The position numbers were made by a program, and so were the translations under genes. A stretch of DNA of 4,579 bases from a virus (taxonomy: Duplodnaviria > Heunggongvirae > Uroviricota > Caudoviricetes). Of the stretch, positions 104 to 375 are shown one piece after another; within the stretch, counting starts at the first letter, position 1; each line of letters begins with the position of its first letter. Below the pieces are notes generated by a model, which was not told where the DNA came from, made no database searches, and saw nothing but the letters and a program-made list of their open reading frames with translations. Where the stretch lies: IMG/VR virus record IMGVR_UViG_2675903578_000008; one strand, given 5' to 3'.

Positions 104-375
104 CGTTAAAACATCTGCAGATAATGACGTTGACTTGGATACAGATGGATTCAGACAACTGAGGATATCGTGCCCATCCCCTTCTGCCAGCGGTGCGATT
201 ATATTGAGAAAAGCTTCTTATGAATTCGGCAAAAGTATAGGTGTATTTGATTTTGCAAACAATGCATCACCAGCGACGATGACATTTTTGATCCCAATAT
301 ATAAAGATGATGATTTTGATTCAGATACTGTTGGTTTTACATTTGCGTTCAAGATGCCAAGAGGCCAGTTTTTTG
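104..375 (+). CDS. hypothetical protein fragment, unknown function; AT-rich, 5' end cut by the IS1 junction and 3' end lost in the masked tract
   Basis: A single stop-free frame spans the whole 272 bp of visible AT-rich DNA (about 39% G+C by hand count), reading ...SADNDVDLDTDGFRQLRISCPSPSASGAIILRKASYEFGKSIGVFDFANNASPATMTFLIPIYKDDDFDSDTVGFTFAFKMPRGQFF. The other two + frames hit stops immediately. It uses codons rare in enterobacterial core genes (ATA, AGA, AGG). I recognise no homolog. A shorter open frame also exists on the minus strand (about 51 codons, stop at 218-220), so strand is not certain. Confidence 0.3.

Follow-up and report, generated by a model that had tools for sequence, protein, structure and literature searches.

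A prophage accessory gene split by IS1 in an IMG/VR virus record, with a predicted exported β-barrel as its intact product

The window analysed here is a stretch of 4,579 nucleotides of tailed-phage DNA (Caudoviricetes) taken from the IMG/VR record IMGVR_UViG_2675903578_000008. At its AT-rich positions 104-375 it retains a 3' remnant of an accessory gene of 483 bp, which belongs to a temperate phage of the SfV/phiP27 type and into which the insertion sequence IS1 was inserted by simple transposition. The window copy is dead, with neither a start codon nor a signal peptide and with IS1 upstream. The intact gene is an optional cassette of the tail operon, and its product, as judged by sequence and by a structure model, would be a small β-barrel protein exported to the periplasm. 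A probability of about 0.85 is given to this reading, with its shown and inferred parts taken together; the guess that the protein serves superinfection exclusion is left out of this figure and is graded separately.

Identity of the fragment at positions 104-375

Window positions 1-375 were compared with complete Escherichia coli genomes by megablast. Positions 104-375 were recovered from 11 genomes at 97-100% identity, the match falling in all of them within a coding sequence (CDS) annotated "hypothetical protein", and the IS1 junction was seen in none of these 11 genomes. The intact gene was also found free of IS1 in one Shigella flexneri genome. The locus from E. coli FDAARGOS_944 (L001) was used as the reference for the intact gene, in which the CDS of WP_000594909.1 occupies 7900-8382 on the + strand (483 bp, 160 codons). 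Positions 104-375 begin with the third and last base of codon 34 (position 104), continue through codons 35-124, read in frame from 105, and end on the first base of codon 125; the fragment is 100% identical to residues 35-124 of WP_000594909.1. The gene order in L001 is the tail tape-measure protein (TMP) gene, the WP_000594909.1 gene and the DNA-circularization gene, and E. coli STEC309 is arranged alike. The prophage in L001 combines an HK97-type head module with a Mu-type contractile-tail module. Its tail-sheath gene (L001 2307-5107) is split by ISEc60 (IS4-like), and thus the reference copy of the intact gene also lies in a defective prophage.

The intact protein was matched over its full length by PHROG 5586, a family of unknown function (E = 9.7e-89, protein 1-160 against profile 1-161 of 161), and the two main 90%-identity clusters of the family hold about 390 and about 420 sequences. 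With a RefSeq protein, a PHROG family and these clustered sequences, the fragment is not the orphan, assignable to no family, for which the initial annotation had taken it. Nine proteins of the family were obtained from a search of 5.8 billion clusters and 18 hits from a profile search of 1.84 billion representative proteins. Where named, the members are all from Enterobacterales, and all are annotated as hypothetical; the gene is carried by about 2% of complete E. coli genomes and by one phage isolate among 50,697 records. The profile also hit three giant repeat proteins, P0017, P0018 and P0020, in each case only through its acidic stretch (profile positions 31-70), and they were rejected as compositional matches. 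P0018 carries cadherin/Ig-like repeats, and the only domain recognized in P0020 is a type IX secretion C-terminal domain. No paper on the family was found by a literature search with the accession numbers and the PHROG identifier, and a search by the name of the sole phage isolate gave unrelated papers only.

The G+C content of positions 104-375 (272 bp) is 39.0%, against 54.9% for the unmasked phage DNA elsewhere in the window. In a six-frame check, the single frame without stops was that on the + strand starting at 105. With this base composition, a run of 90 open codons has a probability of 0.002 per frame; at least one fully open frame occurs in 1.2% of mononucleotide shuffles. The codons AGA, AGG, ATA and CTA together make up 8.9% of the fragment and 3.4% of the adjoining DNA-circularization gene. 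The low G+C content, the stop-free frame beyond chance, the rare codons and the composition foreign to the phage genes had all been pointed out in the initial annotation, and each of them held on measurement. For the intact gene, the clade-to-clade comparison gave dN = 0.39 and dS = 2.2 (saturated), with dN/dS of about 0.18; within clades, dN/dS was 0.2-0.9 for most pairs, which differ by few substitutions, and exceeded 1 in a few pairs with one or two synonymous changes. By these measures, positions 104-375 read as part of a genuine + strand gene under selection. The minus-strand frame noted earlier, open from the masked tract to a stop at 218-220, is indeed seen in the sequence. That this frame is the real gene, or that the + strand frame arose by chance, has a negligible probability, because the homologues, the RefSeq CDS and the purifying selection are all on the + strand.

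IS1 insertions and the masked tracts

IMG/VR was scanned with the family alignment, and the contig IMGVR_UViG_2874968258_000001 (L021) was obtained, in which the family match begins at residue 35. L021 is 100% identical to window 1-375 and to window 3513-4455, and differs from window 654-3332 by one mismatch. The right-hand IS1 junction of the window was likewise found in this contig, which thus carries both junctions with both target duplications and is either the source of the window or its twin. The exact IS1 junction is thus present in IMG/VR; it was not found in GTDB representative genomes. L021 1-3231 corresponds to L001 4779-8009 and L021 4000-8378 to L001 8001-12377, and a whole 768-bp IS1 with the insA/insB open reading frames (ORFs) on the + strand lies between them at L021 3232-3999, flanked on both sides by CGTTAAAAC. 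The 768-bp length, the terminal inverted repeats and the 9-bp direct target duplication (8-11 bp being allowed) are those of a simple IS1 insertion. Beyond the left IS1, L021 continues with the 5' 110 nt of the accessory gene and then with the tape-measure gene. The left IS1 is therefore a simple transposition that split the gene after codon 34 and produced the 9-bp duplication CGTTAAAAC, and the Shine-Dalgarno sequence and the first 34 codons, with the start codon and the signal peptide, are now 768 bp off, across IS1. The features of the window are as follows.

1-103, + strand: right-hand (IRR) end of the left IS1, ending ...GGAGTCATTACC; matched thousands of times in E. coli under the annotation IS1 family transposase, and present as a whole IS1 in L021
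104-112, no strand: right copy of the 9-bp target duplication CGTTAAAAC; L001 8001-8009, present on either side of IS1 in L021
104-375, + strand: visible 3' remnant of the disrupted accessory gene (PHROG 5586); 100% identical to L001 8001-8272, within the WP_000594909.1 CDS
376-653, + strand: masked tract; 240 bp in L021 (4272-4511), holding the remainder of codon 125, codons 126-160 and TAA (110 nt), the hairpin and the start of the next gene
654-1961, + strand: DNA-circularization (Mu gp43/N-like) tail gene; aligned to L001 from 8513 on, CDS 8429-9820 "DNA circularization protein"
4480-4488, no strand: 9-bp target duplication GGGGGCGCA made by the second IS1, left-hand copy, from the alignments of contig L044 with L001
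4489-4579, - strand: IRR end of the second, inverted IS1; reverse complement of window 1-91, with the junction in the IMG/VR contig

Within the window, the IS1 end finishes at 103 and non-IS1 sequence runs from 104. The initial annotation had offered two origins for the fragment. The first, a remnant of a gene hit by IS1, is borne out by the 9-bp duplication and by what lies past the left IS1, namely the 5' part of the same gene followed by the tape-measure gene. The second, cargo unrelated to the phage, fails because IS1-free prophages hold the intact gene in the same tail-operon slot. The masked tracts at 376-653 and 3333-3512 contain 278 and 180 N, and the real sequence in L021 is 240 and 245 bp, respectively. 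The mask lengths and the frames read across the masks are thus not reliable, and the 623-amino-acid ORF at 90-1961 is an artefact that arises from reading through the N-mask. Under the first mask, where the earlier proposal had been to see how far the frame continues, no stop follows immediately; the frame runs on for 36 more codons as VDVKENGNIRAGVNVNGESGVTYENCKLNMKDINDD and then ends at TAA. After the stop comes the hairpin GCCGCCAGAAATTGGCGG with T7 (L001 8388-8410, terminator scan); the DNA-circularization gene then opens with its ATG, its first 84 nt lying in the masked tract. Pfam DNA_circ_N was found in homologous loci at the gene downstream of the cassette.

The second IS1 is also a simple insertion. 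L044 783-5195 corresponds to L001 8001-12411 and L044 5963-6474 to L001 12402-12913, and the element is flanked by GGGGGCGCA and lies in the baseplate J/gp47 gene, which resumes past IS1 in L044. Because baseplate J is interrupted by this second IS1, the prophage is defective and the window copy of the accessory gene is a pseudogene. The position of the segment between two inverted IS1 copies, together with its foreign composition, could suggest that it was IS1-borne cargo, i.e. the passenger of a composite transposon. This origin is already refuted and its probability is close to nil, since each IS1 copy entered an otherwise collinear prophage by simple insertion and has a 9-bp duplication of its own, and the intact gene occurs without IS1 in the 11 complete E. 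coli genomes and the Shigella flexneri genome. The two IS1 copies bracket a collinear 4.4-kb prophage segment and do not form a transposon that carried the segment in.

Two Shigella sonnei proteins of the 90%-identity cluster annotated as "partial", P0043 (ESLPVKTSADND...), encoded on a 4,441-bp contig, and P0037 (MIKPF...SNVKT), are exactly the two halves expected from the IS1 split. The window itself resembles a contig bounded by IS1 in a draft assembly of Shigella sonnei. At window 90-104, the IS1 end supplies an in-frame TTG from which a peptide MESLPVKTSAD... could be read, and a Shigella sonnei fusion fragment of this kind is annotated as WP_252861237.1. The fusion product from TTG 90 is probably non-functional because it has no obvious Shine-Dalgarno sequence and no signal peptide. 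Further downstream, the poly-A at window 2992-2998 is A7, and is A8 in the intact prophage (L001 about 10845-10852). By this shift, the baseplate-hub (Mu gp44-like) ORF at 1958-3040 ends nine codons later (360 instead of 351 amino acids); the difference is either a frameshift mutation in the decaying prophage or a homopolymer sequencing error.

Export and predicted fold of the intact product

All of the 10 full-length members inspected begin with a recognizable signal peptide, in which a positively charged n-region and a hydrophobic core precede small residues at -3/-1; examples are MKFKLLVVGLLLITPQLALA and MNKTLVAACVMVLSFPVFA, both followed by K. The residue after the signal-peptide end is Lys, or Gly in one member. 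From this pattern, the intact product is expected to be exported by Sec to the periplasm, and in clade 1 (E. coli/Shigella/Yersinia) it may in addition be lipid-anchored. A lipobox ([LVI][ASTVI][GAS]-C, PROSITE PS51257-type) is present there as LTS-C or LIS-C, accompanied by a competing AQA-K signal-peptidase I site, and it is absent from the other clades. The clade 1 protein could accordingly be an outer-membrane lipoprotein masking a phage receptor, like Cor (phi80/N15) or Llp (T5). In its favour, MIKPFLMTVAILTS-C agrees with the lipobox rule (Lys n-region, uncharged h-region, L-T-S-C), the Yersinia homologue has L-I-S-C, and the gene lies in a tail-gene region, as do cor and llp (PMC3594210). 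This role is nevertheless considered improbable.

From a confident structure model (pLDDT 84.9, pTM 0.77), the mature protein of about 14 kDa is predicted to consist of an N-terminal helix and an 8-stranded up-and-down β-barrel. Two cysteines, C57 and C150, are conserved or nearly so in the family alignment and are placed by the model beside strand 1 and within strand 8, respectively. Since an 8-stranded barrel closes between strands 1 and 8, where both cysteines sit, a periplasmic disulfide is plausible. Foldseek searches against PDB and BFVD gave nothing below E = 0.02, and the barrel is generic, with no specific structural relative in them.

Another conceivable role for a periplasmic barrel is to inhibit a peptidoglycan hydrolase or a toxin that is imported, as PliC/MliC, PhiA and the immunity proteins of type VI secretion systems (T6SS) do. 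A kinship with MliC through a 'SASGA' motif was tried and rejected: in the profile comparison with E. coli MliC, the sequence of which was verified against PDB 2F09, only the signal peptides are aligned (probability 11%). Similarity to the PliC/MliC mature domain (PF09864), including its SxSGAxY loop, was not found, and Pfam MliC was unmatched even at E = 10. Higher scores were reached by other, unrelated barrels of 8 strands (MoaF-like 8.5, Cap15 7.4, avidins up to 6.7). The inhibitor role is thus regarded as unlikely.

Asp-rich motifs

The initial annotation had singled out a repeated Asp-rich motif, with two similar copies about 57 residues apart. Both copies are present, and their offset is 62 residues instead of 57. 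DVDLDTDGF and DFDSDTVGF are identical at 6 of 9 residues, a similarity reached by 0.7% of fragment shuffles and by 2.4% of mature-protein shuffles. In the model, the loops that precede strands 1 and 5 contain motif 1 and motif 2, respectively. Motif 1 varies among close alleles (DLDIERF in L019, DLDATGV, DLDVEGI) and is missing from the distant members, and motif 2, as [DE][DE]xF[DT]S, is moderately conserved. An internal duplication into two 4-strand halves, each opening with an Asp motif, was rejected at an hhalign probability of 0.45%. With motif 1 variable and the halves unlike each other, the repeat is not a feature of the family. A Calx-beta or Ca-binding Ig-like domain was also rejected: the best PDB sequence-profile hit, CALX CBD2, has E = 0.1 only, the model is a barrel and not a sandwich, and motif 1 is not conserved. 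The Calx-beta and cadherin-repeat matches reflect acidic composition.

The cassette and its slot in the tail operon

In phiP27, the flanks of which are 96% identical, the TMP stop, a 15-bp spacer and the DNA-circularization start follow one another with no accessory gene, and the L001 prophage is about 590 bp longer than phiP27 at this junction. Because phiP27 with such flanks has no such gene, the cassette is optional and moron-like; about three quarters of the closely related E. coli prophages likewise have a spacer of only some 15 bp there. The gene is present in 11 of 50 complete E. coli genomes with related flanks; in the flank-only rows, among the matches listed, the two flanks together cover about 580 bp less than the query does, which is what an empty site should give. 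A different cargo gene that seemed to occupy the same slot in E. coli FDAARGOS_1077 was rejected, as it turned out to be a deletion variant.

The same slot is filled by a second clade of 49-50% identity, to which URC09681.1 belongs, in phage vB_EcoM-720R4 as well as in 101 out of 5,426 E. coli genomes, and homologues of 39%, 34% and 36% identity in three metagenomic phages again lie between TMP and DNA_circ_N. Altogether, six diverged members are directly 3' of a tape-measure gene, five of them directly between TMP and the DNA-circularization gene. At the five diverged tail-slot loci with a DNA-circularization gene downstream, the G+C content of the gene is 34-41%, against 49-56% in the surroundings. 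The accessory gene shows 35-51% identity, against 43-80% for the adjoining TMP, DNA-circularization and hub genes, and the two run roughly parallel. In one metagenomic phage (L012), a HIRAN-domain gene at 2387-2974 stands between the TMP gene and the family member, and the slot downstream of TMP can thus take further cargo.

The intact cassette runs from a GGAG ribosome-binding site and a start codon, GTG or ATG, through about 150-160 codons to a terminator of its own, a GC hairpin with a T-run. By sequence, a GC hairpin and a T-run directly follow the stop codon in nearly all members examined, in the tail-slot and the phage-plasmid contexts alike. When compared with the definition of a moron by Juhala and Hendrix, as summarised in PMC3594210, the cassette shows the extra DNA, the divergent base composition and the terminator of its own, and does not show a promoter of its own.

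Three distant members (24-28% identity) lie outside tail operons, on phage-plasmid-like contigs beside ParA and a cI-like repressor, as follows.

L008 2919-3413: distant member on a phage-plasmid-like contig
L013 740-1270: distant member on a phage-plasmid-like contig
L011 1-452: distant member on a phage-plasmid-like contig

Two of these three contigs have an adjacent toxin-antitoxin-like pair (MazE/PemK or Gp49/HTH), one has IncFII RepA, some have a RecA-dependent nuclease, and one is from Pantoea. This location on phage-plasmids, and not in tail operons, points to an accessory rather than a structural gene. A conserved AT-rich element, TTATTTAAATAAATATTTAAT, which may be a promoter, was noticed upstream of the gene in L008 and L013.

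Proposed role of the intact protein

An optional, AT-rich, terminator-bearing cassette in the tail operon was split by IS1 and left as a pseudogene. The product of the intact gene would leave the cytoplasm via Sec and would form a disulfide-stabilised β-barrel in the periplasm, perhaps lipid-anchored in clade 1. As the product would leave the cytoplasm and phiP27 lacks it, it is taken to be not a tail part and more probably an accessory factor that acts in the cell envelope to the benefit of the phage or the lysogen. Its most likely role would be to stop incoming phages that have cognate tails at the periplasmic step of genome delivery. By analogy, an envelope-acting superinfection-exclusion factor in the manner of HK97 gp15, T4 Imm/Sp and P1 Sim is tentatively suggested; that the gene is linked to TMP and hub genes and evolves fast would agree with this. 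For T4 Imm, binding to the tape-measure protein has been described (bioRxiv 10.64898/2026.03.06.709160). More speculatively, the intact gene could found an undescribed family of soluble periplasmic phage β-barrels, linked to the TMP and baseplate-hub genes of Mu-like tails and intercepting the tape-measure protein or the spike of incoming phages, with relatives recruited to phage-plasmids.

Several results weigh against this proposal. Pfam and NCBIfam gave no match for the protein or for 12 family members, and the defence models of PADLOC-DB 2.0 gave no family at E ≤10. Signal peptides and lipoboxes were called by eye and with a PROSITE-style rule, and the C57-C150 disulfide is putative. No sigma-70 promoter (at least 9 of 12 consensus matches) was found upstream of any tail-slot member; the best candidates reach 8/12 and lie inside the conserved TMP coding sequence, in scans by consensus that may overlook real promoters. 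One member starts just 16 bp past the TMP stop. Because no promoter was found and because of this 16-bp gap, expression from a repressed prophage is not supported, and the gene may be expressed only late, together with the tail genes.

The same two observations would suit a structural or assembly component of the Mu-like tail, such as a tape-measure or baseplate accessory, as would the position of the six diverged members next to the tape-measure gene and the divergence that roughly tracks the flanking genes. Such a component is nevertheless very unlikely. Tails are assembled in the cytoplasm, from which the conserved Sec signal peptide would remove the protein; the gene is absent from phiP27, an isolated phage with a complete genome, and from most related prophages, despite the 96%-identical flanks; homologues occur also in plasmid-maintenance regions; and the terminator is the gene's own and the base composition foreign. 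Mu is not known to have a gene between gp42 and gp43 either.

For the window itself, these results matter little, as the AT-rich fragment is explained by routine IS1-driven prophage decay in a genome of Shigella type, and the find is ordinary save for the unassigned function of the gene. The intact gene is a modest lead: it is very rare and uncharacterised, encodes a predicted exported protein, stays at one position within the part of a contractile-tail operon that serves DNA delivery, and diverges more quickly than the genes around it. Genes of such a profile have repeatedly proved to be entry-blocking or host-modifying factors. Periplasmic interception, if true, would be a soluble periplasmic superinfection-exclusion mechanism for myoviruses.

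Comparison with known systems

The disruption has the features of IS1 insertional inactivation in Shigella genomes, namely the 768-bp IS1, the 9-bp duplication, the AT-rich target and the prophage decay, and nothing in it is unusual. The likeness to the PHROG 5586/WP_000594909.1 family consists in the full-length profile match of the intact gene and in the complete identity of the fragment over residues 35-124; the window copy differs by the IS1 truncation and the loss of the signal peptide, and the family is annotated without a function. With the PliC/MliC barrels (PF09864), no profile similarity extends beyond the signal peptide, and unrelated barrels of similar topology score higher.

P1 Sim is reportedly a periplasmic protein processed from a signal-peptide precursor. 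With P1 Sim, T4 Sp and Imm and P22 SieA, the accessory protein would share that it is phage-encoded and exported or membrane-located, and those systems act on DNA delivery; the resemblance is by analogy only, with no relationship in sequence or fold.

The closest parallel is HK97 gene 15, the first moron, which adjoins the tape-measure gene and blocks DNA entry (PMC3594210). HK97 gene 15 is located upstream of the tape-measure gene, and its product is a small YebO-like protein of the inner membrane, whereas the accessory gene lies downstream, has no detected promoter, and its product is predicted to be an exported β-barrel of about 14 kDa. The two share the extra DNA relative to a near-identical phage (here phiP27), a much lower G+C content, a terminator of their own, the position next to the tape-measure gene and a small product that is, or is predicted to be, targeted to the envelope.
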